Below are positions 3,466 through 47,558 of a DNA stretch of 64,000 bases, piece after piece (position 1 is the first letter of the stretch; every line of letters begins with the position of its first letter). The notes below the pieces were generated by a model that saw only the letters and a list, made by a program, of their open reading frames with translations, was not told where the DNA came from and did not search any database. This stretch comes from Dictyostelium discoideum. Lineage: Eukaryota. The DNA lies in contig CM000150.2 in NCBI GenBank assembly GCA_000004695.1, positions 2,816,001-2,880,000 of the forward strand, written 5' to 3'. The position numbers and the translations under genes were made by a program.

Positions 3466-3498
<33 letters not shown>

Positions 3499-3504
3499 TT
3501 CTTT

Positions 3505-3587
<83 letters not shown>

Positions 3588-4159
3588 CTTCTTCATCATT
3601 ATTATTAAATTGAACTTTTGGTAATGGTTTATGAGCTACTACTCTTTTTGGTTGTTTTGGTGAATCTTCTTCCTCTTCTTCATCTTCTTCTTGCTCTTCT
3701 TCATTATCATCCTCTTGTTCATCTTCATCATTATCTTCTTCATTATTATAATTATATTGATTTTTTACAATTTGACTATTATCTTCATCAGAGGAAGAAC
3801 CAATTTCCATTGGTTCATCTTGAGTGCCACCACTACTACTACTATTTACGATTGGTTGTCTCATAAATTGTTGAGTTGGTACTCTATAATTACCATCATC
3901 CTCTTCTTCACCATCGTCATCATCATCATAACTTTGATCATCTTCTTCATCTTCTTCATCATAATCATCATCATCTTGAGGTGATAAGAATTTTTGTTGT
4001 TGTTGTTTTGATGGTTGTAGTCCTGAATAGGTAGAGAATTTTGGTGGTTCTTTACCACCATGTTTTGGTCTTTCAAAATCTTTAAATCTATCTTCTTCTG
4101 AATCATCATCTTCTTCGACAATATCATCTTCAAGTTCTTCTTCAGTATCATCAGTTTCA

Positions 4160-4258
<99 letters not shown>

Positions 4259-7200
4259 AATAGTTTTTGATGTTTTTGATTTTGTAAGAATTGTTGAGCT
4301 TGCGAAGCTTGTTGATCATCTAATTCATCATCGTCATGAACTACAGCACTATCATCATCCTCTTCTTCTTCATCTTCTTCATCCTCTTCTTCATCTTCGT
4401 TTGAATCAATTTTATAGATATCTTCAAACTCTGAATCTTCATCATCATCATCGTCATCATCAGAATCATAATTTTCATCATCATCATCATCATCATCATC
4501 AGAATCAGGCATACCTCTTTTCTTTAATTTTGGAATTGGATATTCTCTATTTAAACTATCTTTAAATCTAACATTTGTAGTTTTCTTGGCAGAACCACCA
4601 CTTTTAAGTGCAGATTTTAATGGTGAACCTTGTGGAGTACTACCACTAGCAACTGATAAATTTGGTGAAGATGTTGTAGTTGAAGTTGTAGTTACCATTG
4701 TTGGGAAAATCATATCAAGAGAAGATTTATTTGAGGTTGCAACTTGTTCTTCTTCTTCTTCTTCATATTCTTCATCATATTCTTCATATTCTTGTTCTTT
4801 TATTTGTTTCTGTTGTTGTTGTTGTTGTTGTTTTTGTTGTAGTAATAATTGTGAATGAACTTCCATTTGATGTTGTAAAAGTTCTTGTTGTCTTTGGAAA
4901 TCTAAAAGTTTTTCTTGTTGATCTTCAAATTCTTTTTTAATTCTTTGTTGTTCTTGTAATTCTTTTTCTTGTTGAGCCAATCTTTGTTGAATTAATAATC
5001 TCTCTTGTTGTTCTTCATTTGATTTCTTTGTTAGAATCTCTAAATTTGAAATGGGAGCAGTTGATAAAGTTGATGATAAATATAAGGAATCATTATAAAG
5101 TTTTGGAATTGGTGATGGCATTACAATTGGTTTTTGAATGAACGATTGTGGTGGTACTAAATTAACTTTTGAAATTGATTTTGGTAATAATGGTATATTA
5201 TCTTCTTCACTATTTAAAAATTGTTGTGGTTGTGGTTGTTGTTGTTGTTGTTGTGATTGTGGTTGTTGTTTTGGTTTATCTTGTGATTCATTTGTAATAT
5301 TAAAATGAATTGGTCTTTGAATTAATGGTAATGATTGTTCATAATTTAATAATAAATGATTGATAGTATCATGACCATCGAAAACATCACCATTGACTCT
5401 AGTGGATTGATAGTAACGATTAACTTTACAAGCTTCAGGAATACGACCTCTTTTAATATAATATAAAGAGATTAGAGATGAAGCTTTCATTTTGAAAAGG
5501 AAATGTAAAAATACTTGTTCTTCAATTTCATCAAGAGACATATTTAAAATTAAATCCAATTTCTTTAAATTAAATGTATAATTAAATATTGAAAATAATA
5601 ATCTTTCAATTGAATCGATTGTTAATTGATCTTGTAAACGATTTCTAAAACTACGTTGGAATAAGATTGCCTCTAGAATTGAATGATTTGATAAAAGAAT
5701 TCTAACATATAACTGAGCTTCATCTGGAGTTTGTGGTTGGAAATTAAAACCTTTCATTAAAAGTTGAGCATAATTTTTGAATCCAAAACTATAAAATCTT
5801 GCTAAAATTGGATAAAGATATTTCTTTGTAACTTTTGAAGAATTTAATAATGTAAATGCACTTTTAATATCTTCATCAATTAAATTACTATTATTTTCAC
5901 GATTGGTGGCATCTTCATCATCATCATCATCGTCATCAATATTCATTTGATCTTGTGATTTTAATAAATAACTATCTAATTTCCAAATACCCATAATAAA
6001 ACTATAATAATTACTAGAGATATGGAAAGAACCAAAGAATGATTTTAAAGTTTCCGATTGATGTAAACTCTTTCCATTACTACCATTACCACCATTAAGA
6101 TCAGTTAATTCTAAATCTATTAATAAATAGAATAGTACTGAAATCTTTTTTGTAAATTGTTGAGATGATTCAAAAATTTTAAAGAATGATTTCATAGTTT
6201 GAGAATTATGTGGTGGATAAGAACTCATTATTTGATTACCATCAGTCGTTGTTGTTGTTGTTGTTGTTGTTGTTGATGTCGATGACGATAAATCAATATT
6301 TGAATAGAATAAATCAATTAATAATCTATCCGAAAGATATTGATTAGTTCTACCAATATTACCCATTTCAATTGTTAATTTCTCTTTAATAATTTTTCTC
6401 TTTTGAATTGTATAATTTCTAACTGATTCCATATCATTCAATGTTGATGGTTTAAATAAACCAAAATATAAAGACCATTTTAAAATTTCAATAAATCTTG
6501 CAATATTAATTGCTTGATCAATTTTAATTTTTAAAGTATCTGGTAATAAATTGGAATTTGAATTTAAATTTGAATTTGAATTAGAACCACCACCACCACC
6601 ACCACCATCAATTATCATATCATTTGAATTTAATTTATTTAAATTCTCTTGAATATATCTATCAGCTAATGATTTAAAAATACGAACTAAATCTGTAATT
6701 TTAACATAAACTAATTCTAAAAGTTTTGGTGTATCAGAATTTAATTTACTATAAATTTCAGAGAGACCAAAATTTCTATTTAATGTTTGAAAATGTGACC
6801 AAAACGATTCCAATATTAATTTTGCATTTGATGATTTATAATTTAAAATGTAATCCTTTACAATTGAAATTAAATTATTATTTAATGAAAATATTAATAA
6901 ATCATTTCTTTGTTGTTGTTGATCAGATTTATAGAATGGGAAAATATTTGATTCTACAAATTTAACATAGACTGAATTTAAAAGTGTTGATGATTCAAAT
7001 AAAATTGCACCCTTATTCGATAATTCATATACTAATCTCTCTTTTGGACTTAAATAATCTATATTATCAATAGTTGAAAATGATAATAATTTAAATTTAA
7101 AATTTGGATGATAAATTGTTAAATTTAATTTATTTTCTTCAAAATTTTCATAATTATCATCAAAGTTATCACTACCACTACCACTATTACTACCACTAGT

Positions 7201-8352
7201 TTGATATTGATCTTCTTTACTTAAAAATACTTTACTATTATTATTTTCTAATTGATAAAGTACATTATTTAAAACTGATTGTTGATCAATCCAAATTGAA
7301 TGATAACCATTATTTTTAAAGTTTCCATTCTCATCATCCAATTTAATTGAGTGTAACCAATGTTGTTGAGAATTTGAACTATAATTTATACCATGTCTTT
7401 CTAATAAAAATAAATCAAATAATTTAATTTCAATTTTAATTGTACCATTTTCAATGAATTGATAAATAAATATTGATTTTGATTTTGGTATAATTCCATT
7501 ATTTAATTTTAAATCTTTATTTTGATAAAGATATGACATTAATAAAATTTCACCAAATTGATTAGTTTGACTATTAGTTTGATTAATTTTTGTAATATCA
7601 ATTGGTGTATCAACATTTTGAGTTAATGAAATTAAATTATTAATTGTTTTACTTGAATCTGGTGATAATTGTAAATCAAATTCTAATTTATATAAAATGA
7701 TTGAAATGTTATTATTTGAAGATTTATTATTCTTTGAACCTCTACCAATCCATAGATGACTAACACTTGATGTATCATCATCTTCCAACTCTTGATAGAG
7801 AAAGTTGGTGACTGGTGATTGTTTATTCTCTAAATGACTAACACTTGAATGCAATCCAACCTCTCTAGCTGGTGAACAATAATACAATTTGAAGTTGTTA
7901 CTTGAGAATAACTGAAATGTTCCAATGCTATAGCCAATTGCTATCATTCTTAAACTCTCGATATATTCAATCGATGTAACATCCAATTGAGTAAATTGGT
8001 TGGTTTGTTGTTGTTGTTGTTGTTGTTGCTGTTGCTGTTGTTGTTGTGGATATTGGTGTTGTAATTTACTCTTTAAATTTTGTTGTGTAATACCATTACG
8101 ATCTTCAACTAAATATCCCTCTGATGAATGTTTACCTGCTGGATATTCAAATTTGTAACTATTTCCATTAAATAATTGATCACCACCTAAAATAAAATAT
8201 GGTACTAAATTATTGGTCTTATTATTAAAGAAATGTTTATAATCATAATTTGTTATATCTTGTAATATTAATTGATTCTTTTTTTTTTTAAAAAAAAAAA
8301 AATACAAAATAGATTAAAAAAAATAAAAAATAATTAATATTTGATTTTTTTC

Positions 8353-12162: not shown

Positions 12163-15100
12163 GACCAATTTTTAAAATTAATTCAACAGGTACAGATCAA
12201 TTAATTATTAGAGCATTTACAGTTTCAAAGAAAACATTAAAAAGAAAAACAAAAATTAGTGGATCATTAAAAGTTGATGTTAATAAAATTAAAAATGAAA
12301 ATGGTGAATTTGAATCAATTTCAACAACTACAATTGATTTAGCAAGTTTCTTTGGTGGTAGAAATGTTCATAGTTGTAAATTTCAATTACTTCTTTTTTC
12401 AATTTCATATCCTGGAAATTTAATTTCTCAAGTTTTTGAAAAAGGAGATGATGGTACACAATTTTTATTACAATATACACCAATCAATGTAAATTCTTTT
12501 GAAGTTGGTAATCAATTCATTATAAATGCAACCGATTCAATCTCTAGAGAAAATTTAAAGAATTTATCATTAAAAGTTTATAATGATGATGATGGTGATG
12601 AAAAAGATAAAAAATCATTCAAACAATACACGATAACAGATTCACAAATTCAATTATTTGAAAAATCTACAATCGGTGGTTCTCATATGTTTATTTCAAC
12701 ATTGGATGGTAAAAACAAATGTTTATATCAAGTTCCTATCAATGAAATCAATAAGAAACCTTATGAATTCACTACCATAATTTTTGCCCAACAAGGAATT
12801 TTTCGTCCTGGCGATACTGTTAATGTTAAAGGTACAATTAGAGTTGTAGTTGATGAAGGTGTAATCTTACCAGATTCAAAGTTTTTCTCAAAGTATATTG
12901 ATGTTTATCAAAATGATGATATGGTAAATATATCATACACTTTAAAGGATGCAAAGAAAAAAGAAGTTGCCAAAGGTATAACAAAATTAAATGAATTTGG
13001 TTGCTTTGATCTAAAGTTAGTATTACCATTGGATATTAATTTGGGTAACTGTTCAGTGGTTTATAAATATTGTAATGAAGAATTCTCATTCTCTGATATC
13101 AATGTTCAAGAGTTCAAATTGAAAACATTTTTATTGGAATGCTCAATGTCAACCGAATCAAATCGTGGTACCTTTGAATTGGAGACACCATTTGGTGTTG
13201 AATTATTTGCAAAATCATACACTGATGAAATTATACCAAATACAACTGTAGATTGGAAAATCACCGTAAGACCATTGACACCAATCCTCTCGAATTTGGA
13301 TAAAGCTTTCAATTACTTTAGACATGAAACTGATAATATGTATTTTGGTGAGAGTTTTGCTTATAAAAGTAAAAGATCACCAAATGGTAAACATAATTTA
13401 GATTTGGTTCTTCAAGAATGTTCACAACGTTGTGAAGTTAGAGTTCATGCAACTGTAGCCGATGCTTCAAATAATCAAGAGGAAATCTCAAAGAATTTTA
13501 TTGTAGAGAATACTAAATTCACAAACTTTGGTGTTTTAAGTTCCAGTTCAACGATAACTCATCTTATTAATGTCGGTCAAGATTTCCATGTTGATATGTC
13601 ATTGCGTTACTTTGACAATCAACAATCATTTGATGGTAAAATCGATGCAGAAATTCAAAAGATTCCATATGAAGAAGATTTATTACCAGAGAATGTTCAT
13701 AAGAGTACAATCATACCACATACTGATACTCCTTTAAGATTCTCTTATCAATTCAATGAAACTGGTTATTATAAAATAAAATTAAACTATAGTAATGGTG
13801 GTGAACAATTATCTCAATATCATACCATTTCATTGTTTGTATTTGGTAAACAATCTCAAGCAGAATTAGAATATAAAGAATGTACTGCACCTGTTAAACA
13901 AACAACTACAAACAACACCTCATTACTCTATGGAAAGGAAACATTTAAAGCTAAACCAAAACTTGATATCAATTGTTCATTAGATAAAGAGATTTATCAA
14001 TTGGGTGATACAATTAAAATGTGTATCTCTTCAAAATCATTGAATGCCAAGGGTTACATTTGTTGCTCCAAAGAGAATACAATCATTAATGTCATACCAA
14101 TTCAATTGATTGATGGTCAACATGATTGTAAATTTGAAATCAATGAAAAAGTTTATTATCAACCATTATTCTATGTTTATTTAGAAGGTAGTTTGTTGGT
14201 GGAAATAAATGGTGGCCAAAAGGTTAATCGTTTAACAAGTTCATTCGTAAAGGTACCAGTAAAGATTGATTACACTGACAAGCTATTGAATGTTCAAGTT
14301 GAAAAATGTAATAAATTCCAATCTCCATCAGAAGAATCAAATATTACTATCAGTGTAAAAGATAAAAATCAAAAACCACTCTCAAATGCTCATGTTTCAT
14401 TGATTATTGTTGATCAAGCAGTTTTAGATATAACAAAGCATTCAATTAAAACCCAATGGGATCCATTAAATACTTACTTTGGAGATGGTTCATTTTTTAT
14501 TGGTAGAAATAAAATGAACTCTCTATTGGACAAAACAATCTATAATGATCCAGTAGAAATTAAAACCATTGAATTGGATCTTGAAGATTTCCAAGGCGAT
14601 AATGAATTACAAATCATTAATATTAAATATATGGCAGGTAGAATCATTCAATTAAAAGTATCGGATGAAACAACCATTGGTGAACTTCAACAAATGATTA
14701 TGGACAGAGATGGTCTTCCACCATCATCACAACGTTTATTCTACTTGAATAAACAAATTGATTCAAACGCAACAATGAAACTTAAAGAATTTTCAATCGT
14801 TAATAAAGCAACTCTTAATTTGGTAATCCGTTTACATGGTGGTACAAATACACCACCTTCAGATGACAAACCACTAGCTCAAGATTTGAATAAACCAATT
14901 AGAGTACGTTCAAACTTTATGCCTTTGGCTTACTTTGGAAGTTTAAATACCAATCAAGATGGTAAAGTAACATTTACTTATAAACTTCCAGATAATCTTT
15001 CAACCTTTAGAGTTATGGCTTTGGTTCACTATGGCAAAGATCAATTTGGTAGTTGTGAACATACTTTTATATCATCGTTACCAATAATGGTTCGTCCAAG

Positions 15101-17171
15101 TCCACCACGTTTCTTAAATCATAATGATAAAGCAATATTCCCAATTATGATTTCATCAATCGTTGATTGTGATTTATTTTTTAGTGGTGCAATTCGTTCA
15201 AATAATTGTAACATTGAAACCAAAGGATTCAGTGGTGTACTTCCAGCAAAATCTAGAATCATATTCCCTGTCCATGTTAATGCTTTAGTTTCAAATTGTA
15301 TTGCAGACTTTCAATTTGTTGCAAAAACTCAATTATTAGATCATTCACAAGAGATTTGTGATGCAATCTCATTTAAATTCCCTGTTTTCTCTTCAAGTGT
15401 ATTGGAGACAACAACTATCAATCATAGTTTAGTAAATTTGAAATCAAAGAAAGAAATTTCATCTCACAACTTAAAACTTGATAATTGGAAAGATTTAGAT
15501 CAACAATTGGGTGGATTAACAATTACTCTATCAAAAACTAAACTTCAAAAGATTTCATGTTCAGTTAAAGATTTATTACATTATGAATACTCTTGCTCTG
15601 AACAAATTGCTTCAAAATTATTAGCCCTCTCCACCTTTATAAAGTATCCACATTTATTAGAAGAAAAAGATATCAAAGCTTTAGGTCTTGAGAATATTAA
15701 AACCAATAAGAAACCTTTGGAAGATATGGTTGAAATTTTAAAGAAACGTTATCAATCATCAGATCATTCATTCACTTATTTCGATGATAAAAAGAGTGGT
15801 TCATATGAATTTGTTTCAGTATTTGTTTACTTTGTATTGAATCAAATCTCTGATCTATCGGAAGAAGCCAAAAAATTGGCATCAAAGGCTGAAGCTTACT
15901 TTTCAGGATCTGCCAATGTAATGGTTTTTAATAGAGATTCTTATGAAAAGAATAAATTCCAATATCTTTTAGGTAAAGCATTTGCATCATTTGTCTATGG
16001 TACCATTAAACAAACCTCTGTACCTCATACAAGTTTTATTTCAAAGGTTTTACAAACTGCAAAATTCGATTTCTCAAATAGCCAATATCAAGAGATCTTT
16101 ATCTATCTCTCACAATTCTACAAGAGTCACCTCGATTTCAAAAATATTTCAAACTATGTTACAATTACTGGTTCCTTGGCTTATGTTACTTCTAGTCCAA
16201 TCTTTGGATTCTATGGGGATACTCGTCTTCAGTCAATTTTAATACTTTCACTTTTAGAAAGTGGAAAGACATCACATAAAGATCATCCACTCTTGGAACG
16301 TTTAATAAGTGGTTTAGCTCATTTTGTAAATAAAGAAGGTCGTTATGGTACTACTCAAGCCAATGCATTCAATATCTTTGCAATCTCTCAATATGAAAAG
16401 ATGAAATTATCAGGTGAAAAAGTTGATCCAACATTGGATGCAAGTATTATTTTAGGAAATCGCTATTTGGAAAAGAAAAAAGTAACAATTGGTGATTCAG
16501 AAAATTATACAATCACTGTACCTTTCTCTCAAATCCTAAAGAATCAAAAACCATTGATAATTCAAAGAAAAACAAAAGGTACCCTTTATTATAGCATAAA
16601 TCTCTCCTATGCTTCATTGAATCCAATCTCTAAAGCTATCTTTAATAGAGGTCTCAATATTAAAAGAACCTATTATCCAGTTTCAAATTCAAATGATGTT
16701 ATTTATCATTCTCCAATTGGTGTTGACCAACCTCAAACCATTGAAATCAAAGCAGGTTCAAGAGTAAAGGTAACACTTTCAATAAAGGTCGATCATGTTT
16801 CTAGCTTTATAGTTATTAAAGATAGATTACCAAGTGGTTTGGAACCATTACTTTCAAATTCCTATTATCACAATGGTTATTATTTCAATCATGTTAATAA
16901 TCGTGAAAATGGTGTTGAAATTTATTCAAATCTTTTATATCCAGGTGTTTATAATTATTCCTATCAAACTATTGCAATTACACGTGGTACTTTTATTTCA
17001 CCATCAGCAAAAGTAAGTTTAAAAAATTTTTTCTTTTTTTTTTTTTTTTTATTTCTTTTCATATTACTGATATACTTTTTTTTTTTTTTTTTTTTTTTAC
17101 TTTAGATTGAAGAAATGTATTGTCCTGCAACTTTTGGTCGTTCTTCTTCAGAAATTGTATTAATTAAATAA
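9931..17171 (+). CDS. Alpha-2-macroglobulin/thioester-containing-protein (A2M/TEP) family protein, ~2,337 aa, with an N-terminal and an internal ubiquitin-like domain; 3 exons
   Basis: Exon 1 is 9931..12029. Intron 12030..12163 runs GTATGT..AATAG and carries (TAA)n. Exon 2 is 12164..17012. Intron 17013..17105 runs GTAAGT..TTTAG. Exon 3 is 17106..17171 (IEEMYCPATFGRSSSEIVLIK*). The phases check (2099 + 4849 + 66 nt = 2338 codons), and the frame is open from 12164 with no internal start, so the join to exon 1 is needed. A2M-like motifs are 'LPDNLSTFRVMALV' (cf. PDSITTW), 'SLPIMVRPSPPRF' and 'YEYSCSEQIASKLLAL' (cf. GCGEQ). Ubiquitin-like stretches are 'DTTIDSLKIQ..IRFIFSGKQLENFSTLEENKIENDSTIIV' at the N-terminus and 'IQLKVSDETTIGELQQMIMDRDGLPPSSQRLFYLNKQIDSNATMKLKEFSIVNKATLNLVIRLHGG' internally. 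Confidence 0.7.
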
Positions 17172-28540: not shown

Positions 28541-29608
28541 ATGGCAGATAAGAAAATTATTATCGATTTTGGATCAGGTTGGACAAAATGTGGTTTTGAA
28601 GGTGAAGTAACACCAAGTGTAGAATGTTTAACAATTGTTGGACATCCGAATAAACAAGGTGATACAAAATTGTTTTATGGTAAAGAAGCAGTTGCAAGAT
28701 TTAGTACATCAAAATTAGTGTATCCAATAAAGAATGGTATAGTTTGTAATTGGGAAGATATGGAAAAGTTTATAGAGAATACATTTTATTATAAATTAAG
28801 AGTTGAACCACAATATCATTCGGTATTACTAACAGAAACAACAATGAATACTAAAGAGAATAGAAATAAAATGGCAGAGATTATGTTTGAAACTTATGAT
28901 ATACCATCAATTAAAATTGAAAATCAACAAAAGTTATCATTTGATCATTTATCAACAGGTACTAAAAACGGTACAATAGTTGATATGGGTGATGACTCAA
29001 TTAATATAGTGCCATTTGTTGATGGTCAACCAGTGACTGATGCCGTTGTTACACTTGATTTCGGTGGTCGTAATTTAACAGGTTATTTGGCCGCTTTGTT
29101 ATTCCAAAATGGTTATAGTTTCTCAACAGTTGCTGATCACCAAATTGTACGTCAAATTAAAGAGAAACATTCTTTCATTGAATTGGATTATGAAAAACCT
29201 TCAAATACTAAAAAACAATCATTTTCTTATCCTGGTTCATCTGATATTCAAATTGATGCTCGTTATTTATACGGTTGTCCTGAACCACTTTTTAGACCTT
29301 CACTAGTTGGTTTTGATTCTTCTGATAGTCTTTGTAATTCAACTTATTCTTCAATTATGAAATGTGATCAGTCAGTTCAACAATCATTATTTTCAAATAT
29401 AATTTTAACAGGTGGTTCTTCAATGTTTACTGGAATTAAAGAACGTCTTGAATTGGAAATTTCAAAAATTAATACTACCAGCAATAAAATTAATATAATA
29501 TGTTCAAAAGATCGTAAAAATTCAAATTGGTTAGGTGCTTCAAAATCAATTACTTCAACTGATAATTGGGTTTCAAAAGAAAAATTTACTGAAAAGGGTA
29601 CTTTTTAA
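28541..29608 (+). CDS. Divergent actin / actin-related protein (355 aa)
   Basis: A single ORF that aligns along its whole length with actin: 'IIIDFGSGWTKCGF' vs 'LVIDNGSGMCKAGF', 'NWEDMEKFIENTFYYKLRVEPQYHSVLLTETTMNTKENRNKMAEIMFETYDIPS', 'VTLDFGGRNLTGYL', 'YSSIMKCD' and 'LTGGSSMFTGIKERL'. Confidence 0.75.
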   Translation: MADKKIIIDFGSGWTKCGFEGEVTPSVECLTIVGHPNKQGDTKLFYGKEAVARFSTSKLVYPIKNGIVCNWEDMEKFIENTFYYKLRVEPQYHSVLLTETTMNTKENRNKMAEIMFETYDIPSIKIENQQKLSFDHLSTGTKNGTIVDMGDDSINIVPFVDGQPVTDAVVTLDFGGRNLTGYLAALLFQNGYSFSTVADHQIVRQIKEKHSFIELDYEKPSNTKKQSFSYPGSSDIQIDARYLYGCPEPLFRPSLVGFDSSDSLCNSTYSSIMKCDQSVQQSLFSNIILTGGSSMFTGIKERLELEISKINTTSNKINIICSKDRKNSNWLGASKSITSTDNWVSKEKFTEKGTF

Positions 29609-32991: not shown

Positions 32992-33111
32992 AATTTTTTT
33001 TTTGAATTGGATAACGCAATTATTATTTGCTTCTCCTTGAGATGCTAGATCTCATTTTATTTTATTTATTTATTTTTTTTTTACAGGGTCTCTAAAAGAG
33101 GGGTTGGTTTA

Positions 33112-33149
<38 letters not shown>

Positions 33150-33441
33150 TTTCGAATTTTGAATTGTATTATTACTTTTGATTAAAACATCTTTTTTGTC
33201 CAAACTTTTTTCTAAATCTTTTTTTATTTTATCGTCTGGTTCGTGATTGATGTTTATGACGTATTTGAATTGTTTTTTTTTTAATTGAGTTTTATCCACA
33301 ATTTCGCTTATTTTTTGTAGGCATTTGTGTTGCTTAATATTTGTGGTGTTGTTTGAGATTTTCATTTTATTTTCTTTCTATTTTTTTTATTTTTCTTTAA
33401 AAAGTTAAAAATCTGGAAATTTTCTGATTAACTTGGGTTCC

Positions 33442-33482
<41 letters not shown>

Positions 33483-33999
33483 TTATTTATAGAAAGTACT
33501 GAGTGAATTATTGTATTTTTTGAGATGTTTAGGAAGTTCTATTGCGTGAGGAGGTGAGTTCCATTGTCTGCTAAATTGTAATAGCTTTAGCGAGATTAGT
33601 GAGTCTAATTTATTTTGTTCTTCTGGCCGTTGCTTTGATTTGATTCTTAATGTTTTGTTTATAACCGCTTGTGTCAGCTCTTTGTGTTTTAATTAGTTCA
33701 CGTATTACTTGTTGTCTGTGAATTATTATTTCTTTTTCATCGTGAATGAGTTTGTTTCTTTTGTGCCAAATTTTTTCGAATATAATAGCTATTAAATTGG
33801 CTACTAGTGCAATTTGTAGATGGTTTAAAATCTTCACATTCCAGGTGTGAGTGGTGTGTCCACACTTAGTTAGGGTGTAGTTGAAGATTTCTTGTGTGTT
33901 TTTGATGTGGGCTTTGCAGTTGAAGAATATATGTTCTGAAGTCTCATCTTCCCCACACTGTTGGCATGGCATGTTGAATATTTTTGGTAGTGCTTTCAA
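32992..33999 (-). mobile_element. 5'-truncated TRE5-A non-LTR retrotransposon (ORF2 C-terminus, B-module with ORF1 start stub, C-module, oligo(A)), inserted ~30-45 bp upstream of tRNA-Gln
   Basis: Minus-strand order is ORF2 C-terminal ORF (33999..33610), B-module with ORF1 stub (33365..33081, MKISNNTTNIKQHKCLQKISEIV..), 'agaccctgtaaaaaaaa', then C-module 'aaatgagatctagcatctcaaggagaagcaaataataattgcgttatccaattcaaa' and oligo(A). It is bounded by a 16-17-bp direct duplication 'AATTAAATCGAATAAAT' at 32975..32991 and 34000..34016. Confidence 0.7.
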
Positions 34000-34044
34000 T
34001 TAAATCGAATAAATATAGGTTTTTTTCTAAAAAAAATATCAAAG

Positions 34045-34117
34045 GTTTTATAGTGTAATTGGTTAGCACCCAGGACTTTGAATCCTGTAATCTGAGTTCG
34101 AGTCTCAGTAGAACCAC
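34045..34117 (+). tRNA. tRNA-Gln (anticodon UUG)
   Basis: Cloverleaf read by eye. The acceptor GGTTTTA pairs with TAGAACC. The D-stem is GTGT/GCAC. The anticodon arm is CAGGA-CTTTGAA-TCCTG with TTG. The T-arm is CTGAG-TTCGAGT-CTCAG. The discriminator is A. Confidence 0.85.
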
Positions 34118-34139
34118 TTTTTATATAAACAAAAAATAG

Positions 34140-34165: not shown

Positions 34166-34379
34166 AACTAAATGGAACTTATTAATAAAAGCACTCAATT
34201 GTTTAATATTTAAAAGTTTTTAATAGTCATCGATTCACACTTTAAAGCTTTCATATTAATTGTGTTTTTATTATTTATTATGATCAATATTGGCATTAAA
34301 TTAAAAATTTAAGTGGTATGTAATAAAATCAAAAATTAATTTTTTTTTTTAAAATGTTTCGTTTAAAACTTGTTATATA

Positions 34380-35110
34380 TTTTCTATTTTTAAATTAGTT
34401 GAATTTTTAGGAGATGATGAAGAAGCGAATTTTACAAATGCATTATATGTATGTTACAAAAATATTGAATCATGTTGTTCATGTGATATTATTTCAAAGA
34501 TTATTATTTTTAGTTGTAAATCATCACATGAATTAGTTGATATTTTAAGTTTAGATAATAATACAATATTGGATTTGCATGTGGTGTCAATCAAGATGAA
34601 ATAGTTAAAGATCTACAATCTCTATTACCCTATCAAGACATTCTTCCATTAAACAAGAGCCCAAGTTAAGATGATTTCAAATCATTAACGAGTAGAATTA
34701 ATGGTGGTATAAATTTTTCATCCTAAACCAAATGTCCAGTGAATATTGAAGTTTATCCACATTCAACTGAAACTAGATCAATTAAAGAAGATATTTTACT
34801 TGATGTTGTCATTAAACCAATAAAAGTTGGTGCTGATGAAGTAGTAATCCCACCAGGTACTAAAATTAAATTTCTTTCAAATTCCTATTGTTCGAGTTGA
34901 ACAATTATTTTAGCAAATGAACTAATAGTGGGTCAAAAATATAATGAAACGGTTTCATTAAAGCGTAAGAGATTTGATGAGTGTAATCAATTAGTATCAA
35001 TTCCTGGCTTTCCATCTAAAATTAACTTTACCATTGAGTTTAAAAATGAAAATATAAAGTGAATATTCATGAAGGTTCAATCAATTTAAATATCGCTTAC
35101 TTTTTTGGGT
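34380..35110 (+). pseudogene. Truncated, stop-riddled paralogue of the 5' half of the vWA-GTPase gene at 36550..38865
   Basis: 34380..35110 aligns base-for-base with 36940..37700 ('..gatgaagaagcaaattt..tattgaatcatgttg..attatttttagtt..gaattagttgatattttaagtttagataataatacaatat..ggatttgcatgtggtg..' and '..ccagtgaatattgaagtttatccacat.caactgaaac.agatcaat.aaagaaga..'). It carries in-frame stops ('atgaaatag', 'ccaagttaag') and deletions. Confidence 0.7.
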
Positions 35111-35620
35111 GAATTCAAATAAAATATGTGTAACAACTGGTGGTCGGTGTCATCAGTGTTAGTTTTTCCTAATGATTTCTTTATTGTGTTGGTTATTGTT
35201 GCAGAAGTTATTGGTGTTGTAATGTTGGGTGATGATGGTGGTGTTGAATGGTTATTTAATGATTGTTGATTTATTAATTGAATGTGTTGTTAAAGTAGTT
35301 GATTTTGTTTATCTATTACTTGTTGCTGTTCTCTTATTTGACGTTGCTGTTCATTGAATGTTGATACCTGTGATTGATGTTGTTGTTCCTCACTATCCTG
35401 TTGTTGAGGTTCATTATTATCAATATCTTCATTGTTATTATTGTTGTTATTATTATTAGTTGACATTCTCTAAAAATAATTATTTGATAAAATTCAATTA
35501 TTTATTATTACTAATTTAATTTATTATTTTATTATTATTGAATTTATTTGTTATTATTATTATTTAAATAAATGATTAATTATTTAAGAAATAAATGTAC
35601 ACATATATCTAGTTGACGAC

Positions 35621-35755
35621 CGTAGCCCTATCGCGTTTTTATTATTGTATATTTATTACTGAGGTTGAAATAGAAACCTAGTTTCTTTTTATAGTCCTCA
35701 GATTTGAGCGAACTCAAATCTGTTAACTACTCCAACCTCAGCCGATAGGGTTAGA
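35621..35755. repeat. Nested imperfect palindrome / hairpin element (~135 bp), GC-enriched
   Basis: The outer arms are 'CCCTATCG' (35628..35635) and 'CGATAGGG' (35743..35750). The second arms are 'tactgaggttgaaatag' and 'ctactccaacctcag', matching at 13 of 15 positions. The core is a perfect 10-bp stem-loop 'cagatttgag-cgaa-ctcaaatctg', plus 'gaaacctagtttc'. The class is unknown: MITE or structured ncRNA. Confidence 0.5.
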
Positions 35756-36517
35756 TCCAATTTAAACTACAATATTATATTATTTTAATTTTATTCTAAT
35801 TAATTATTATTTTTCTTTTTAATTAAATTATTTTTAAATTTATATTATTATTTTATATGATGATTTTGTGTGTGACATTTTTAATACCTTTATCATCAAT
35901 AATTATCATCAAAATAAAACTAGAAAAAATACCCTTAAAGATATCCAATATCTTAAATTGTTAACAAGGGCTGTTGAATTATGTAAATAAAAAAAAGGTT
36001 CCAAAAAAAAAAAAAATAAATAAATAAATAAATAATATAATTTGATAATTTGGTAAAATAAAAAAAATAAAATAATAATATCGGTCTATAAAAATTATTT
36101 TAAATTATTTATTTGTTTTTATTTTTTACATATCTTATTTTTTTTTTTTTTTTTTACCAAATTAAGTATATCTTTTTTTTTAAACTTAAAATATTAATTA
36201 ATTTGGTAACCACAAGAGGTAATCCTAAATTTTCAAAATTTTTTTTTTTTTTTTTATTTTTTTTTTTTTATTTTTCATTTTTTAATTTTTTAAAAATGAC
36301 CTCTTAAAATATTAAATTCAAAACTTAATAAAATTATTTTTTTTGCCTTAAATCAACATGACCTAAAATTTTAATTAATTCAATAGGAGTCAACAAAAAG
36401 GAATGTTTTTTTTTTTTCAAATAGGAATTAATAAAAAGGAATTATTTTTTTTTTTTTTTTTTATCATTCAATCAAAAATAATAATAAATAATTATTAAAT
36501 AAAAATATCATAAATAA

Positions 36518-36549: not shown

Positions 36550-36552
<3 letters not shown>

Positions 36553-38865
36553 TATAAAGAAATTCCAAAAAATAATAATCAAAGACAAGCTCTTAAAACT
36601 GAACTTAAAACATGTACAAATACAGATAGTAGTGTAGTTTATTATTCAATTCTAATTGAAACATCGTCAAGAATGTCTGCCTATAATGTAATAATTAAAA
36701 CATTTATTACTCAACTTCAAAAAATCAATAGAGATTGTCAACTTCAAATCATTACATTTGATGAAACTGTAAATACAGTATTTGAATTCGAAACTGAACC
36801 AATTCTTCTTAAAGATAGTTTAAAAGAAAGTAAGTAATTTTTTTTTTTTTTTTCTTTAATCTTCAAACATATTCTTATATTAATTTATTAATTTTTTATT
36901 TTTTATTTTTTTATTTTTTTTTTTTTTAAATTAGTTAAATTTTCAAAAGATAATGAAGAAGCAAATTTTGGACAAGCATTACAAGTATGTTATGCTAATA
37001 TTGAATCATGTTGGTCAAGTGATAATATTTCAAAAATTATTATTTTTAGTTCAGGTAAATCAACAGATGAATCAGGAGATGAATTAGTTGATATTTTAAG
37101 TTTAGATAATAATACAATATTTGGATTTGCATGTGGTGCCAATTCCGATGAAGTTGTTAAAGATTTACAATATCTATTACCTGGTCACAAGATTGCTCCA
37201 TTGGGTAAAAATCCAAGTAAAGAAATTAAAACATTAATGAATAGTGGTGGTGAAAGTAACAACAGTTGTGGTGGTAGTGGTAGTGGCGATGATGATGATG
37301 GGGCAAATAATTCATCAACTAATTGTCCAGTGAATATTGAAGTTTATCCACATACAACTGAAACAAGATCAATCAAAGAAGATCTTTTTCTTGATGTTAT
37401 CATTAAACCAGATGGTAATACAACAACGATTCCAGCAGGTACAAAAATTAAATTTCTTTCAAGTAAATATTACTCGGCCTATACCATTCAATTAAAAGAT
37501 GATTTAATATTTGGTGAACCATATGAAGAAACCATTAGATTAGAGTTTAAAAAAGGTCAACTTGAAAAAACACAATTTGAACACTTTCCATCAAAAATTA
37601 ACTTTACCATTGAACTTTCAAATGATAGAGACAATGTCCATCAGGGCTATGTATTTTTGAATATCTCTTACTTTTTAGGTGAATTAAAATCAAAGTATAG
37701 TATTAATATTGGTGTTGAAGGTAATATTGGTAATGGTAAGAGTACTTTATTGAATGGCTTCATTAATCTTTTCAATCCAACAGATGAATTGGTTGAATAT
37801 TTCATTGCAAATCGTTCCAATGATGATCATGTAACCACAAGCTTCAACAATACATCATTAAAGGAAATTCTATCATCAAAACAAGATATTCATCCAGTTC
37901 AAGAATCATTCCATGATATTGATATCTCTTTGTCTGATAATTGGGGTTTCATCGATACCGATGTATCATTAAGATATAAAGCCGAAGGTAGAATTCATCA
38001 TGGTGTCTCAAAGAATAATTGTATAGTTCAACAACCATTGGATCGTTATCGTGTCGATTGTTTTATTTTCGTTGTTTCCATTAGAAGTTTCGGTGATAAA
38101 GATTCTATGGCAAAAATTGAAAAGAAAATTAGAGAAGTTATTGATATGGGTATCACTCCTTTATTAGCTATTACTTTTGTTGATGCTCTTTCTAAAAATC
38201 AATTTCAAGAACTCATTAGAACCAGAGGTGAATTATCAGTTCAAGAATCTAATACCTTTATCATCAATAACTATACTGAAAAGGAAACTCATAGAGATAT
38301 CTCTAAAGATATTCAATATCTTAGATTATTAACAAAAGCTGTTCAATTATGTAAAATTTTAAAAGAAAAGCAAGCAATGAATAAATTAAAAGCTTTATCA
38401 ATTGATGAAAATAATAATCCAACACCTGTTAAAAATCAACAACCATCATCATTTTTTGGTGAATGTTCTTCAACCTTCACTTCTCCAAATAAATCGTTTC
38501 AAAGTCCAATGACTGGATCTCCAATGCAAACTCGTCAATCTGAAACTCAACAACAACAACAACAACAACAGCAACAAATATCTTTACCAATTAATGTTAC
38601 CGTTGATGTTGTACCAGATGCTCAAGGAACTATTTTAACTTCATTCGAGATAGAAGCAAATCTTAATGAAACCATCTCTGAATTAAAGAATAGATTAATC
38701 AATGAAATTGACTCCAATATTAATTCAAATGATTGGAGCCTTACAAAAGAAAATGGTACAATTCTATTCGAGTCTGCTAAATTACTATTATTATCCTCTT
38801 CTTTTAAACCTTCTGAACAACCTGATTCCATTAAATTAGTATTAAAGAAGAAATTAAGATTATAA
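36550..38865 (+). CDS. vWA-like domain plus septin/AIG1-like P-loop GTPase protein with a C-terminal beta-grasp (UBL-like) segment; 2 exons, ~736 aa
   Basis: Exon 1 is 36550..36829 (MYKEIPKNNNQRQALK..LKDSLKE). Intron 36830..36934 runs GTAAGT..AATTAG. Exon 2 is 36935..38865. The N-terminus has a vWA-like beta-alpha pattern with a degenerate MIDAS ('VVYYSILIETSSRM..QIITFDETVNTVF..KIIIFSSGKSTDE'). The Walker A motif is 'INIGVEGNIGNGKSTLLNGF', which is septin/GIMAP-like. Further motifs are 'WGFIDTDV', 'CFIFVVS' and 'AITFVDAL'. The C-terminus reads 'INVTVDVVPDAQGTILTSFEIEANLNETISELKNRL..SIKLVLKKK'. Confidence 0.6.
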
Positions 38866-38973
<108 letters not shown>

Positions 38974-39198
38974 CTCTATTATTTATTTTTTTAAATAGTT
39001 AATAAATTTAGTGTAATTTTCAAAAAAAAGATAGTATTGTTTTTATTGATTGATGAGTTTAATTTATTATTAAGGAGAGCTTTATTGTTATCTCCTTTGC
39101 CTTTTTATTGAAAATGTTATTATTATTTATTTTTATTTTTTTCTTTTTTTGGTTTGGTATATATATAAAAACAAAAAAAAAGACCAGGGATTTTTGAA

Positions 39199-39251: not shown

Positions 39252-39324
39252 TGGTTCTACTGAGACTCGAACTCAGATTACAGGATTCAAAGTCCTGGGT
39301 GCTAACCAATTACACTATAAAACC
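39252..39324 (-). tRNA. tRNA-Gln (anticodon UUG), inverted copy
   Basis: An exact reverse complement of the tRNA at 34045..34117. Confidence 0.85.
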
Positions 39325-39638: not shown

Positions 39639-39689
<51 letters not shown>

Positions 39690-41395
39690 GGAACCAAGTT
39701 AATTAGAAAATTTCCAGATTTTTAACTTTTTAAAGAAAAATAAAAAAGATAGAAAGAAAATAAAATGAAAATCACAAACAACACCACAAATATTAAGCAA
39801 CACAAATGCCTACAAAAAATAAGCGAAATTGTGGATAAAACTCAATTAAAAAAAAAACAATTCAAATACGTCATAAACATCAATCACGAACCAGACGATA
39901 AAATAAAAAAAGATTTAGAAAAAAGTTTGGACAAAAAAGATGTTTTAATCAAAAGTAATAATACATTCAAAATTCTCACAGACAGTATTAGTACAGTAAT
40001 CTATTTTGTAAATATGTTTGATGCAGAATTAAAAGGACAATTTATAACCACTATAAGACCAAAAAATATGTATACAGATTTTGATTGGTATAAATCACTC
40101 ACAGAAATAGAATGGGTAATAGAAAATGAAGGATGTAAACTAATTAAATCAGAAATTAAAGGCGAAACTCTAATTATCAAAACAGTGAAAAGAGTCGTAG
40201 AAGAATTTGACACTATCATTGAACTAGACAATCTAACATTAATTGGACACTCCAACAAAGGATGGAGAGATCAAACCTCATTACCAGAAAATCAAGAAGA
40301 AAACAAAAATAAAAAACAATCAGATGAACAACAACCACAATCTACATCAGAACAAATACCAAAACAAGGAAAAAGAACAATCATTATCCCACCAATCACA
40401 TCCTCATCTAATGATAAAACATTTATGGCCCTAGATGATACAGCTCAAAAGGTAATAGAAGCATCACTAGAAAACGTAGATGAACTAACAAGAATAGAGA
40501 ATGAGATCAATACACAATCGATAAACAATCAAGAAATTAAAACAAAATCAGAAAAAAATATAGCAACACCATCTCCATACAATACACCAATAAAACAACA
40601 CGGCGAAACAAAGGGACTAACAACGGAAGAAAAACTTAGAGAGGCAAATGATATCTTCGACTTCACCAGCCCAAACACTGATGCAATAAGAAAAATAGAA
40701 TTCCCACTTTCAATCCCTTCAAATCAATGGTTCTTCTCCTCTCCAATAAAACATATCATGAGTTTCAGCCCAACCTATGGTACACCATCGAAAATTATCG
40801 ATTCACCAAGTAAATTGTTAAACACACCAAAAAAGAAACAACAAGACAAAACAAACAAGACCAACAAAACACCAGTCAAACCAAAATTGGGTGAATATGG
40901 ACAAAAAAGCATAAAAACAAAAATGGATGAAGATATAGACAACTTCAACAAGGAAATTCTAAAACAAATCAATAAATCAAAAAACCCCACAAACACACAA
41001 GACCAACAACACAATGAACAAAGTAAAGATCAGTTAGAAGACAAAATAAACCAGAAACTTCAAAAGGTAGATAAAAATCTACCCCAAATAAAACTATAAA
41101 GAAAAACACAATAAGAATAGGTGTTTGGAACGTCCAAGGATCCAACACCATCCAATCTGCCAGCATAATAAACACCGTTTTAGACAACAACAAGCTGGAC
41201 GCAGCACTTCTAACTGAAACAAATATAAAAACAAATAAAATTTACTCAATAAATCAACAATATAAAAACAAAATAACACACCACGCACCAATTGATAAAA
41301 CAGGACAAGGGGTGTCACAAATCATCATCAACACCCGCAATAGAACTTCCTAAACATCTCAAAAAATACAATAATTCACTCAGTACTTTCTATAA

Positions 41396-41453
<58 letters not shown>

Positions 41454-41776
41454 CAAGTTAATCAGAAAAATAAAAAAGATAGAAAGAAAATAAAATGAAA
41501 ATCACAAACAACACCACAAATATTAAGCAACACAAATGCCTACAAAAAATAAGCGAAATTGTGGATAAAACTCAATTAAAAAAAAAACAATTCAAATACG
41601 TCATAAACATCAATCACGAACCAGACGATAAAATAAAAAAAGATTTAGAAAAAAGTTTGGACAAAAAAGATGTTTTAATCAAAAAGACCCTGTAAAAAAA
41701 AAAAAAAAATAAAATGAGATCTAGCATCTCAAGGAGAAGCAAATAATAATTGCGTTATCCAATTCAAAAAAAAAAA
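39371..41776 (+). mobile_element. TRE5-A non-LTR retrotransposon, ORF2-deleted (TRE5-A.2-like): duplicated A-modules, B-module, full ORF1, ORF2 N-terminal stub, second B-module, C-module, oligo(A); 5' end ~32-47 bp upstream of tRNA-Gln
   Basis: An A-module unit 'agatcgaaaaaaacaaacaacaacaacaatctctttttttgattatttcatttttcatataaaaaagacttaaaaaa' is present twice (39373..39448 and 39573..39650). ORF1 is 39765..41099. An ORF2 start stub (..IRIGVWNVQGSNTIQ..) joins directly to the ORF2-3' segment 'caatagaacttcctaaacatctc..'. A second B-module carries the ORF1 start (41495..41695). The C-module 'agaccctgtaaaa..aaatgagatctagcatctcaaggagaagcaaataataattgcgttatccaattcaaaaaaa' closes the element. A perfect 15-bp target-site duplication 'ATAAAATTAATAGAT' lies at 39356..39370 and 41777..41791. 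Confidence 0.8.
39765..41099 (+). CDS. TRE5-A ORF1 protein (444 aa) inside the retrotransposon
   Basis: An ORF-track ORF. The same N-terminus 'MKITNNTTNIKQHKCLQKISEIVDKTQLKKKQFKYVININHEPDDKIKKDLEKSLDKKDVLIK' recurs in the B-module stubs at 41495 and 33365 (minus). Confidence 0.75.
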   Translation: MKITNNTTNIKQHKCLQKISEIVDKTQLKKKQFKYVININHEPDDKIKKDLEKSLDKKDVLIKSNNTFKILTDSISTVIYFVNMFDAELKGQFITTIRPKNMYTDFDWYKSLTEIEWVIENEGCKLIKSEIKGETLIIKTVKRVVEEFDTIIELDNLTLIGHSNKGWRDQTSLPENQEENKNKKQSDEQQPQSTSEQIPKQGKRTIIIPPITSSSNDKTFMALDDTAQKVIEASLENVDELTRIENEINTQSINNQEIKTKSEKNIATPSPYNTPIKQHGETKGLTTEEKLREANDIFDFTSPNTDAIRKIEFPLSIPSNQWFFSSPIKHIMSFSPTYGTPSKIIDSPSKLLNTPKKKQQDKTNKTNKTPVKPKLGEYGQKSIKTKMDEDIDNFNKEILKQINKSKNPTNTQDQQHNEQSKDQLEDKINQKLQKVDKNLPQIKL

Positions 41777-42082
41777 ATAAAATTAATAGATATTAAATAT
41801 GCATATTACATTACTAATTATAGTTGACACACATTTAAATAATATAATAATAATAATAATAATACTGTCAACTCATTATAAATAATATAAATACTAAAGA
41901 ATAATTTTATAAACAATATTGAATATTATAAATATAAACTAATATTAAATAAAGATAACAAAGTATTATTCAATTATATAATTATTAATTATATATATTT
42001 ATAAAGCTAACAAGCTTTATTACACTAAAAAAATTTACATAAAATTTATTTCTTTTAGAAAAAAAAAAAAACCGGAGCAAAG

Positions 42083-43070: not shown

Positions 43071-43931
43071 ATGGATGCACTTTCATCACAACAACCATCA
43101 ATTTATTATAATTTTCTTCAAATTACAAAATCCAATATGGAACTTTATCCGGTACCAAAAAATATTGATTCTTGTGAAGCATATGAACCATTTAGAAAAA
43201 CAGTATCAAATGATTTTTGGTATGCTTCAGCATGTCAATTCATTGTTAGATTGGTTAAACTTTCAAAGAATATGAAATTTAATAAAATCAATGAAACTAA
43301 TATTAATCAAATTTTATTTGATCATACAACACATGGATTACATTTAGCAACTGCAACAACTGATACTACCAATGATAATTCAGAGAAATTAGAGATTCAA
43401 CAAGTTGTAAATATCTTTAATGTTTTAAAAGATATGTATAAAAAGAAGAACCAAATTTTAACAGTTGATCAAATTCTATTATGGCATTCTGAAATTTTAG
43501 TTGGACCAAAAAGATTTCAAGATTTTAGATCAACATGGGCATTCTCTGAAGATATAATATTTGTTGAACCAAAAGATGTTAAATCTAAACTTAGCCATTT
43601 AGTAAAAGAATTTAATTCTCATCATCAAGATTTTCTATTAACTGGTAAAACTCCAATCTATAGTGTTATCTCTTGGTTCTTACATTCATTCACTTTAATT
43701 CATCCTTTTGAACATGCCAATGGTAGAATGGCATTACTATTGGTTCAATTTATTTTATTCTCTTTTGAATTTCCTTGTCCTGTACCATTTTTTATTAATA
43801 AATATGAATATCAATCAATATTATTTGACAATGATAAAAATTTTAAAGATAAAAAAGATACACTAACAAATTTAATAATTGAAAGTTCAATTAGAATTTA
43901 TAGAAATTCTAAAGCTTTACAATTCCTTTAA
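43071..43931 (+). CDS. Fic (Fido) domain protein, 286 aa
   Basis: A single ORF. The Fic motif is 'HPFEHANGRMALLL', matching HPFx[DE]GNGR with G changed to A. The flanking helical regions are of ordinary complexity. Confidence 0.6.
   Translation: MDALSSQQPSIYYNFLQITKSNMELYPVPKNIDSCEAYEPFRKTVSNDFWYASACQFIVRLVKLSKNMKFNKINETNINQILFDHTTHGLHLATATTDTTNDNSEKLEIQQVVNIFNVLKDMYKKKNQILTVDQILLWHSEILVGPKRFQDFRSTWAFSEDIIFVEPKDVKSKLSHLVKEFNSHHQDFLLTGKTPIYSVISWFLHSFTLIHPFEHANGRMALLLVQFILFSFEFPCPVPFFINKYEYQSILFDNDKNFKDKKDTLTNLIIESSIRIYRNSKALQFL

Positions 43932-44256: not shown

Positions 44257-47558
<3,302 letters not shown>

Follow-up and report, generated by a model that had tools for sequence, protein, structure and literature searches.

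What kind of protein is encoded at positions 36550–38865 of a 64-kb stretch of Dictyostelium discoideum DNA, and does it belong to any described family? The stretch (contig CM000150.2, positions 2,816,001 to 2,880,000; here called the window, to which all coordinates refer) is very A+T rich, and the gene, DDB_G0269482, lies with all its features on the + strand. An earlier note on this DNA had proposed that it encodes a three-domain protein of 736 residues, in which a VWA-like domain is fused to a P-loop GTPase and a C-terminal beta-grasp. We found that DDB_G0269482 is a real, intact gene under selective constraint and that its product is a soluble 736-residue protein with four folded modules and low-complexity linkers. 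The order of the modules is VWA, seven-strand beta-sandwich, septin/GIMAP-type G domain, and ubiquitin-like tail. Each of these domains is of a known kind, and databases already list the gene, under the name of a hypothetical "VWFA domain-containing protein." The novelty lies in recognizing a coherent, unnamed family, in which the VWA domain and the beta-sandwich are joined to a septin-clade G domain undetected by Pfam and in which the C-terminal modules are interchangeable.

The gene consists of two exons. Exon 1 (36550–36829) begins with the ATG at 36550 and comprises codons 1 to 93 and the first base of codon 94; its reading frame runs into the GTAAGT at 36830. The intron (36830–36934) is 105 bp long, of the GT..AG type, and very A+T rich, with the AG acceptor ending at 36934. 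Exon 2 (36935–38865) keeps an open frame to the TAA stop at 38863–38865. Spliced together, as established from the listing of open reading frames and by direct reading, the two exons form an in-frame coding sequence of 2211 nucleotides. An exact-sequence look-up showed that the 736-residue product is identical letter for letter to DDB_G0269482 of D. discoideum AX4 (XP_646001.1; UniProt Q55DY0), whose database name is merely "hypothetical protein / VWFA domain-containing protein." All the strings quoted in support of the three-domain proposal were located in this product (ETSSR at residues 37–41, GNIGNGKST at 356–364, DTDV at 434–437, AITFVDAL at 505–512, and INVTVDVV..LVLKKK at 646–733), and all three domain signals lie well above chance. 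No transmembrane-type hydrophobic segment was found in the protein, and its comparison with NCBIfam and PADLOC returned nothing meaningful.

The class of the P-loop region was established with distant relatives. When the 736-residue protein was searched as a single sequence against the PDB and Pfam, its middle region gave P-loop–level noise and also a weak GTP_EFTU match near residues 467–523, and a profile of nine Dictyostelium-only sequences performed no better. We then set up an exhaustive HMMER search, in which a profile of residues 222–585 (VWA excluded) was compared with 1.84 billion cluster representatives. The septin signal emerged only once this search had added distant relatives. Against the PDB, the family profile matched septins over profile positions 120–313, from G1 through G4, with the best scores for septin-3 (E=3.6e-10), septin-9 (1.2e-9), septin-12 (about 1e-8), and yeast Cdc12 (6e-7). 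The next matches were Di-Ras, IRG, and RsgA/EngC at about 1e-4. The members were also searched one by one against Pfam, and all matches were sub-threshold: RsgA in 25 of 38, Septin and MMR_HSR1 in 15 each, Dynamin_N in 10, GTP_EFTU in 8, and AIG1 in 7. Thus, no Pfam model covers the G domain of this family.

The conserved columns of a 38-sequence family alignment are precisely the motifs of a G domain, which occupies the P-loop region (residues ~341–545; 37675–38289). The G1 or Walker A motif, GNIGNGKST (residues 356–364; 37720–37746), follows the pattern G356-x-x-G359-x-G361-K362-[S/T]363, with G356, G361, K362, and S/T363 present in all 38 sequences and G359 in 37. The G2 or switch I motif, HVTT (residues 392–395; 37828–37839), contains an invariant T394 (38/38), located directly before strand b2 of the model, and H392 in 34 sequences. 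The true DxxG motif of G3 is DNWG (residues 428–431; 37936–37947), which lies at the end of strand b3 and is paired by HMMER with septin DTPG; D428 is found in 37 sequences, W430 in 28, and G431 in all. It had been placed just downstream, at DTDV (residues 434–437; 37954–37965). We rejected this candidate, as DTDV is replaced by DSDI, DGDL, ESSY, or ATDV even among Dictyostelium paralogues and does not figure among the conserved columns. The G4-like element that had been seen in AITFVDAL is TFVD (residues 507–510; 38173–38184), which follows strand b5 in the model and is aligned to septin AKAD but has no Lys; T is kept in 29 and D in 28 of the 38 sequences.

Strand b4, RVDCFIFVVS (residues 466–475; 38050–38079), resembles the septin Sep2 motif R[VI]Hxxx[YF]F[IL]. 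It pairs with RVHCCLYFIS of septin-3, the core of Sep2, in the HMMER alignment, and the consensus of the family is IHxxIFV; position 468 is H in 26 of the 38 sequences and D in six, including DDB_G0269482. Further conserved columns are G445 (38/38), P502, and N539-Y540 (Y540 in 38/38), as well as R/K547 and D552, both present in all sequences, in or near helix a5. This long C-terminal helix (38290–38409; residues 549–584 in the model) has a predicted local distance difference test score (pLDDT) of 95–97 and is not followed by a beta-meander.

Two AlphaFold models were used. The full-length run was performed on P0001, a 95.5%-identical orthologue from another strain, with 14 close homologues; its G domain had a pLDDT below 50 and was unusable. 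This part was superseded by a domain-level run of residues 222–585 with 38 diverse sequences. In the domain-level model, strands and helices follow one another canonically as b1-a1-b2-b3-a2-b4-a3-b5-a4-b6-a5, except that b2 and b3 are separated by a helical insert; its top Foldseek structures were GIMAP2, RasL12, Irgb10, GIMAP7, mitofusin-1, and Irga6. Together with the septin profile match, this bears out the assignment of the Walker A motif as septin/GIMAP-like. The G domain is of the TRAFAC class, nearest to septins by sequence and to GIMAP, Toc, IRG, and mitofusin by structure, and, as judged from its predicted features, it probably binds GTP.

N-terminal to this domain, the proposed VWA domain was confirmed by Pfam, in which VWA (PF00092) matches residues 46–169 with a score of 33.8 bits, where the gathering cut-off is 23.8 (E=5e-8), and VWA_2 matches with E=8e-6. 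The domain comprises residues ~28–197 (36631–37245) and spans the intron. In the full-length model, strands and helices alternate over residues 31–196 with a pLDDT of 70–84, as expected for the alpha/beta Rossmann-like fold of VWA domains. The metal ion-dependent adhesion site (MIDAS) had been described as degenerate, with ETSSR (residues 37–41; 36658–36672) replacing DxSxS. This was right, and the loss reaches further. According to a 40-sequence family alignment, the column of ETSSR reads DGSGS, DSSWS, DTSGS, or similar in distant relatives, which together with a G-x-T-N and a T-D-G segment possess a complete MIDAS. The corresponding segments of the Dictyostelium clade are E-T-S-S-R, E-A-N, and F-S-S-G. 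DDB_G0269482 has D changed to E, S to R, the downstream T to A, and the downstream D to S, and the pattern of a metal site is not present. Because distant relatives keep the MIDAS and the Dictyostelium clade does not, the metal site is ancestral to the family and has been lost in DDB_G0269482. As read from the residues at these positions, every MIDAS metal ligand of its VWA domain is lost.

Between the VWA domain and the GTPase lies a fourth domain, overlooked in the earlier note. It is a seven-strand beta-sandwich (residues ~225–340; 37327–37674), conserved across the family and preceded by a low-complexity linker rich in G, S, D, and N (residues 198–224; 37246–37326; pLDDT below 50), whose length varies among orthologues. 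Both AlphaFold models contain seven strands over residues ~225–335, with a pLDDT of 70–79 in the full-length and above 90 in the domain-level model; in the latter, the strands comprise residues 226–232, 244–252, 264–267, 276–279, 290–296, 314–320, and 328–334. The two-domain model of residues 222–585, beta-sandwich plus G domain, reached a pLDDT of 90.7 and a predicted template modeling score (pTM) of 0.89. The high pTM of this model indicates that the beta-sandwich packs in a fixed manner, rigidly, against the G domain. A profile of the beta-sandwich gave no significant match in the PDB.

The G domain is separated from the C-terminal module by a disordered linker rich in S, P, and Q, with a run of ten glutamines (residues 586–644; 38410–38586; pLDDT below 50). 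Its Q10 run and S-rich tracts vary in length among D. discoideum strains; in one of these, 8 Ser are inserted, 5 residues are deleted, and the Q run is changed. The C-terminal beta-grasp that had been proposed beyond this linker (residues ~645–733; 38587–38853) was supported by profile search, hhalign, and the secondary structure of the model. We searched a profile of the last ~90 residues of 19 sequences against the PDB, and all 60 best matches were exclusively chains of the ubiquitin family. Matches to single domains included the ubiquitin-like domain of ubiquilin-2 (E=5.6e-5), ISG15 (E=7.6e-5), and ubiquilin-1 (E=1.5e-4); the large scores for polyubiquitin are inflated by repeat summation. 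Aligned to ubiquitin with hhalign, columns 13–73 of the profile corresponded to residues 10–71 (probability 60%, E=8e-5). The full-length model places strands at residues 646–654, 663–670, 695–698, and 726–733 and helices at 675–686 and 712–715, an order (b-b-a-b...b) compatible with the b-b-a-b-b-(a)-b of a beta-grasp at low confidence (pLDDT just 53–65). We thus consider the tail likely to be a ubiquitin-like domain. Because the protein ends in ...LVLKKKLRL, without a C-terminal Gly-Gly, it would be an integral ubiquitin-like domain and not a conjugatable modifier.

Next, we evaluated how widely this architecture is distributed. The exhaustive search yielded 81 representative clusters at E<=1e-3, 45 of them at E<=1e-10, and most of the matches share the layout of VWA, beta domain, and P-loop domain. 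Members were found in the Dictyostelia (D. discoideum, D. citrinum, D. firmibasis, D. dimigraforme, D. purpureum, Tieghemostelium, and Acytostelium), in other Amoebozoa (Pellita, Pelomyxa, and Nematostelium), and beyond them in the aphelid Amoeboaphelidium and the heterolobosean Pharyngomonas, with many more on metagenomic contigs. None of the named matches was recognized as a prokaryotic homologue, and a word-indexed search with a broad profile returned Dictyostelium fragments only. The C termini vary within the family and consist of ubiquitin-like domains, zinc ribbon/DZR arrays, or, in one Pelomyxa protein, a kinase. The family core is VWA, beta-sandwich, and G domain, patchily distributed across eukaryotes and unnamed.

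Several members depart from the common layout. The Pelomyxa schiedti protein (P0048, 1698 residues) continues beyond the VWA–GTPase core with a long stretch in which the protein kinase domain lies, while a D. citrinum protein (P0023, 777 residues) has a long N-terminal region with a B-box zinc finger in place of the VWA domain. Two metagenome- or assembly-derived proteins matched weakly (E~1e-7 to 1e-5) and contain tandem repeated G domains: P0074, with DTPG and a "VTFAD" that resembles the TFVD of the family, and P0084, with DSPG and "VNFTN." The closest outgroup of the family may be represented by these two proteins.

The family had been described as duplicating and possibly fast-evolving. 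The first part is supported by a decayed tandem copy, a fragment, and copy-number differences among strains. Among the recovered homologues, AX4 has two intact genes, DDB_G0269482 and DDB_G0275033, which are 58% identical, together with the 248-residue fragment DDB_G0282207 and a pseudogene upstream of DDB_G0269482, whereas other strains labeled D. discoideum have at least four intact genes. The second part is weakly supported, as judged from the ratio of nonsynonymous to synonymous substitution rates (dN/dS). Compared with the orthologue in strain ACTFIW, where counts are small, dN/dS was 0.24 for the whole protein, 0.49 for the VWA domain, 0.10 for the beta-sandwich, 0.15 for the G domain, and 0.20 for the ubiquitin-like domain. 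The overall value indicates that the gene is under purifying selection. Protein identity between strains is 95–96%, which is equaled by the unlinked paralogue DDB_G0275033, and the flanking DNA is 91–94% identical. Because the unlinked paralogue and the flanking DNA diverge alike, we rejected an unusually fast evolution of the locus and attribute these differences to strain divergence.

We also compared the family with known systems that share parts of its architecture. Septins (PF00735; SEPT3, SEPT9, SEPT12, and Cdc12) are alike in the GxxGxGKS P-loop, in DxxG, which corresponds to their DTPG, in TxxD, which corresponds to AKAD, and in a Sep2-like b4 of the form R[VI](H/D)xxx[FY]. The septin unique element, the polybasic region, and the coiled-coil tail are all missing from the DDB_G0269482 family. 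DDB_G0269482 adds a VWA domain, a beta-sandwich, and a ubiquitin-like domain, and it goes undetected by Pfam Septin. Moreover, Amoebozoa and Heterolobosea, in which no septins have been found (10.1101/2024.03.25.586683), have members of the family. The "paraseptin" GTPases GIMAP/AIG1 and Toc34/159 stand apart as well, as Pfam AIG1 (PF04548) does not match DDB_G0269482 and is touched, weakly, by just 7 of its 38 relatives (best E=0.0015). GIMAPs possess C-terminal helices or membrane anchors of their own and have no VWA domain, beta-sandwich, or ubiquitin-like domain. The G domains of Irga6/IIGP1, Irgb6, Irgb10, and mitofusin/BDLP are set inside helical bundles, while DDB_G0269482 has one long a5 and no helical stalk.

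The combination of VWA and GTPase had been thought to match no described eukaryotic family. This holds for the family itself, for which no description was found, but a VWA–GTPase fusion as such is already known. The cpRAS-VWA proteins of Dictyostelium and other protists join a GTPase and a VWA domain in one polypeptide and are, likewise, scattered, in Amoebozoa, Opisthokonta, and Excavata (Elias & Novotny 2008, PMC2430557). However, their Ras-like domain is circularly permuted (G3-G4-G5-G1-G2) and lies N-terminal to a VWA domain of the Sec23/24-trunk type (PMC2430557), whereas in DDB_G0269482 a septin-like G domain with the motif order G1-G2-G3-G4 lies C-terminal to the VWA domain. cpRAS-VWA is a different, unrelated family. 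Bacterial MoxR-vWA "iSTAND" ternary conflict systems offer another likeness: their vWA component has a variable C-terminal region, with effectors that include a GTPase of the AIG/GIMAP-septin clade (Kaur et al. 2020, PMC7159879). These systems are prokaryotic and operon encoded, with MoxR and an inactive STAND protein as partners, whereas such partners do not apply to DDB_G0269482. An evolutionary link between its family and the bacterial systems is speculation.

What, then, might the protein do? Its architecture, the conserved motifs, the purifying selection, and the distribution of the family are results of the analysis, while its mechanism is an inference. For septins, GIMAPs, Toc34/159, and IRGs, activity depends on nucleotide-dependent dimerization or oligomerization via the nucleotide-binding face. 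Because these relatives dimerize by means of nucleotide and all nucleotide-binding motifs of DDB_G0269482 are intact, a GTP-controlled assembly switch appears as its most likely mechanism. We therefore lean, with somewhat better than even confidence, toward DDB_G0269482 being a GTP-controlled assembly scaffold with a four-module architecture. Its G domain would probably bind GTP and dimerize or oligomerize through the nucleotide-binding face, as in its nearest relatives. Partner binding would fall to the VWA and ubiquitin-like domains, with the nucleotide state gating their engagement, and the rigidly attached beta-sandwich could provide a further surface for it. Precedents include the paraseptin GTPases with arginine fingers in the G interface (10.1101/2024.03.25.586683) and the oligomerization of GIMAP2 (PMC3417536). 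The interchangeable C-terminal modules and the birth-and-death dynamics are reminiscent of immune GTPases and of the vWA components in bacterial MoxR-vWA systems (PMC7159879). A role in cell-autonomous defense or membrane organization would be plausible.

Several points weigh against the assembly scaffold. The Lys of the guanine-specificity motif [NT]KxD is absent from the G4-like TFVD, so that a preference for guanine is presumptive. The Sep2-type His common to most relatives (26/38) is Asp in DDB_G0269482. This His is needed at the septin dimer interface; if it is needed here as in septins, the G-interface behavior of DDB_G0269482 may differ. The metal site is absent from the VWA domain, so that classical MIDAS-type ligand binding is, to judge from the residues present, excluded. 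The scores for the ubiquitin-like domain, both the hhalign probability and the model pLDDT, are moderate. Last, our literature search found no paper that names DDB_G0269482, its paralogue, or their accessions.

Other explanations concern the class of the protein and whether the gene functions at all. Weak single-sequence matches centered on Walker A (NadR, E=0.1; dNK, ATPase_2, NPHP3_N, ABC_tran, and AAA_29, E=0.008–0.14) and the weak touching of many relatives by AAA_29 and AAA_16 could mean that the P-loop region is not a GTPase but a nucleotide or nucleoside kinase, a NadR-like protein, an ABC ATPase, or a STAND/AAA-type ATPase. However, these matches span just about 30–60 residues around the P-loop, whereas the family profile runs with septins from G1 to G4 (E=3.6e-10), and the switch-I Thr, DxxG, and TxxD are conserved. 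Kinase or ABC identity is effectively refuted by the septin profile match, the G motifs, and the G-domain model, and we give this explanation next to no credence. The earlier note had made its proposal depend on a VWA fold at the N terminus and on a P-loop region outside the kinase and ABC families; we found a Pfam VWA match for the former and a septin-type G1–G4 match for the latter. A bona fide filament-forming septin with extra domains would account for septins being the best profile match, by more than five orders of magnitude over other GTPase families, for the similarity of strand b4 to the septin-specific Sep2 motif, and for Pfam Septin being weakly touched by 15 of the 38 relatives (best E=7e-6). 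We nevertheless consider it quite improbable. The septin unique element is missing, as b6 is followed by one continuous helix (549–584) with no beta-meander and then by a disordered linker. There is no polybasic stretch before G1, where residues 321–356 hold two Lys and one Arg, and the protein has no match to Pfam Septin even at E<=1. The nearest structures are those of GIMAP, Toc, mitofusin, and IF2, not of septins, and dedicated surveys report septins nowhere in Amoebozoa or Excavata (10.1101/2024.03.25.586683). The b4 similarity is partial. The Sep2 motif is DxR[VI]Hxxx[YF]F[IL]xP (Pan et al., PMC1931588), and the stretch in DDB_G0269482 reads R-V-D-C-F-I-F-V-V-S-I, with R, V, and the aromatic residue matching, H replaced by D, F replaced by V, and the final P missing. 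The family is best described as separate from true septins, within or beside the septin/paraseptin assemblage.

DDB_G0269482 could also be a decaying, non-functional member of a birth-and-death family, a pseudogene in waiting whose architecture has no present function. Its tandem neighbor is a pseudogene in AX4, the AX4 relative DDB_G0282207 is a 248-residue fragment, the MIDAS is lost, retroelement fragments flank the locus, and the dN/dS of the VWA domain is about 0.49. We regard this as highly improbable, since the reading frame is uninterrupted and the intron canonical, at least two other strains have intact orthologues and four species have paralogues, the overall dN/dS of 0.24 falls to 0.10–0.20 in the beta-sandwich, G, and ubiquitin-like domains, and the nucleotide-binding motifs are all intact. 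We find it less far-fetched, though still unlikely, that the protein works specifically in immunity, by analogy with GIMAP/IRG GTPases and with bacterial AIG-type effectors linked to vWA; the VWA domain or the variable C terminus would sense or recruit, and GTP-driven oligomerization would trigger defense against ingested bacteria. This would fit the nearest structures, which include GIMAP2, GIMAP7, Irgb10, and Irga6, and the AIG/GIMAP-septin-clade GTPase effector of MoxR-vWA "iSTAND" systems (PMC7159879), as well as the copy-number change, tandem duplication, pseudogenization, and swapped C-terminal modules within the family. However, dN/dS shows constraint and not an arms race, the inter-strain identity of ~95% is also found in the unlinked paralogue and the flanks are 91–94% identical, so that divergence looks genome-wide, and no prokaryotic homologue appears among the named matches.

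A further, tentative picture we consider possible but doubtful. The family would be an ancient, unrecognized branch of septins/paraseptins whose ancestor already carried a metal-binding VWA domain and a beta-sandwich and which survives in Amoebozoa, Heterolobosea, and aphelids, some of them lineages for which no septins are reported. It might be a eukaryotic counterpart of the bacterial vWA/AIG-GTPase conflict modules and would act either as a sensor or scaffold of amoebal cell-autonomous defense that oligomerizes with GTP or as a septin-like substitute in membrane scaffolding. If the septin affinity is true in phylogeny, the family bears on possible septin relatives in Amoebozoa and Excavata, two groups from which septins are reportedly missing, and it would add a genetically tractable Dictyostelium member to the dimerization-activated GTPases (septin, GIMAP, Toc, and IRG). 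The interest of the family would rise further if its G domain were sister to septins in septin-less lineages or if the defense role were true. The metal site, kept in some distant relatives and lost in the Dictyostelium clade, represents a natural experiment on the contribution of the VWA domain.

The surroundings of the gene show how the family has changed at this locus. The decayed paralogue that had been noted about 2 kb upstream is indeed present (34371–35984, +). It was recovered by tblastn as frameshifted pieces in different frames (34389–35127 and 35883–35984, +), 79–94% identical to P0011/P0012, an intact 555-residue gene that in other strains is the direct upstream neighbor of the DDB_G0269482 orthologue. 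The pseudogene is an orthologue of ACTFIW_009974, which is intact and has 555 residues. Alignment with the syntenic locus shows that the AX4 pseudogene lacks ~330 bp at its 5' end and a further ~570 bp inside, where the G-domain core is encoded. The intact upstream paralogue of strain ACTFIW (positions 5653–7426 of its locus, L001; 555 residues) consists of VWA, beta-sandwich, and GTPase and ends right after helix a5. It naturally has neither the linker nor the ubiquitin-like domain, so at least one member of the family can do without the ubiquitin-like module.

The gene and the pseudogene are bracketed by an inverted pair of tRNA-Gln(UUG) genes, at 34044–34117 (+) and 39252–39324 (-). Their surroundings (~90–130 bp) form a ~99% identical inverted repeat (34035–34123 versus 39333–39245), and another strain has them arranged alike at its syntenic locus (L001). 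Each tRNA-Gln gene has retroelement-like sequence just upstream, at 33081–33999 (-) and 39643–41800 (+), which presumably resembles the tRNA-targeted, TRE-type non-long-terminal-repeat retrotransposons of Dictyostelium. It includes a 444-residue open reading frame (39765–41099) with no Pfam match, whose first ~70 residues recur at 33081–33365 (-) with 98% DNA identity, and an open reading frame at 33610–33999 (-) with a CxxC...HxxxxC motif. The other strain has ~100-bp traces only of this sequence, most of which is absent. A (TAA)n microsatellite of about 110 bp (38866–38975) begins at the stop codon of DDB_G0269482.

Farther away, the neighbors include an actin-family protein at 28541–29608 (+), a Fic/DOC-domain protein at 43071–43931 (+), and a RING-finger protein with an RFWD3-type WD40 propeller at 44257–47558 (+). 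The order of these three genes is the same in the other strain, and a functional link to DDB_G0269482 is not evident. The window also contains two very long open reading frames, one of 2048 residues at 2161–8307 (-) and one of 1472 residues at 12687–17105 (+).

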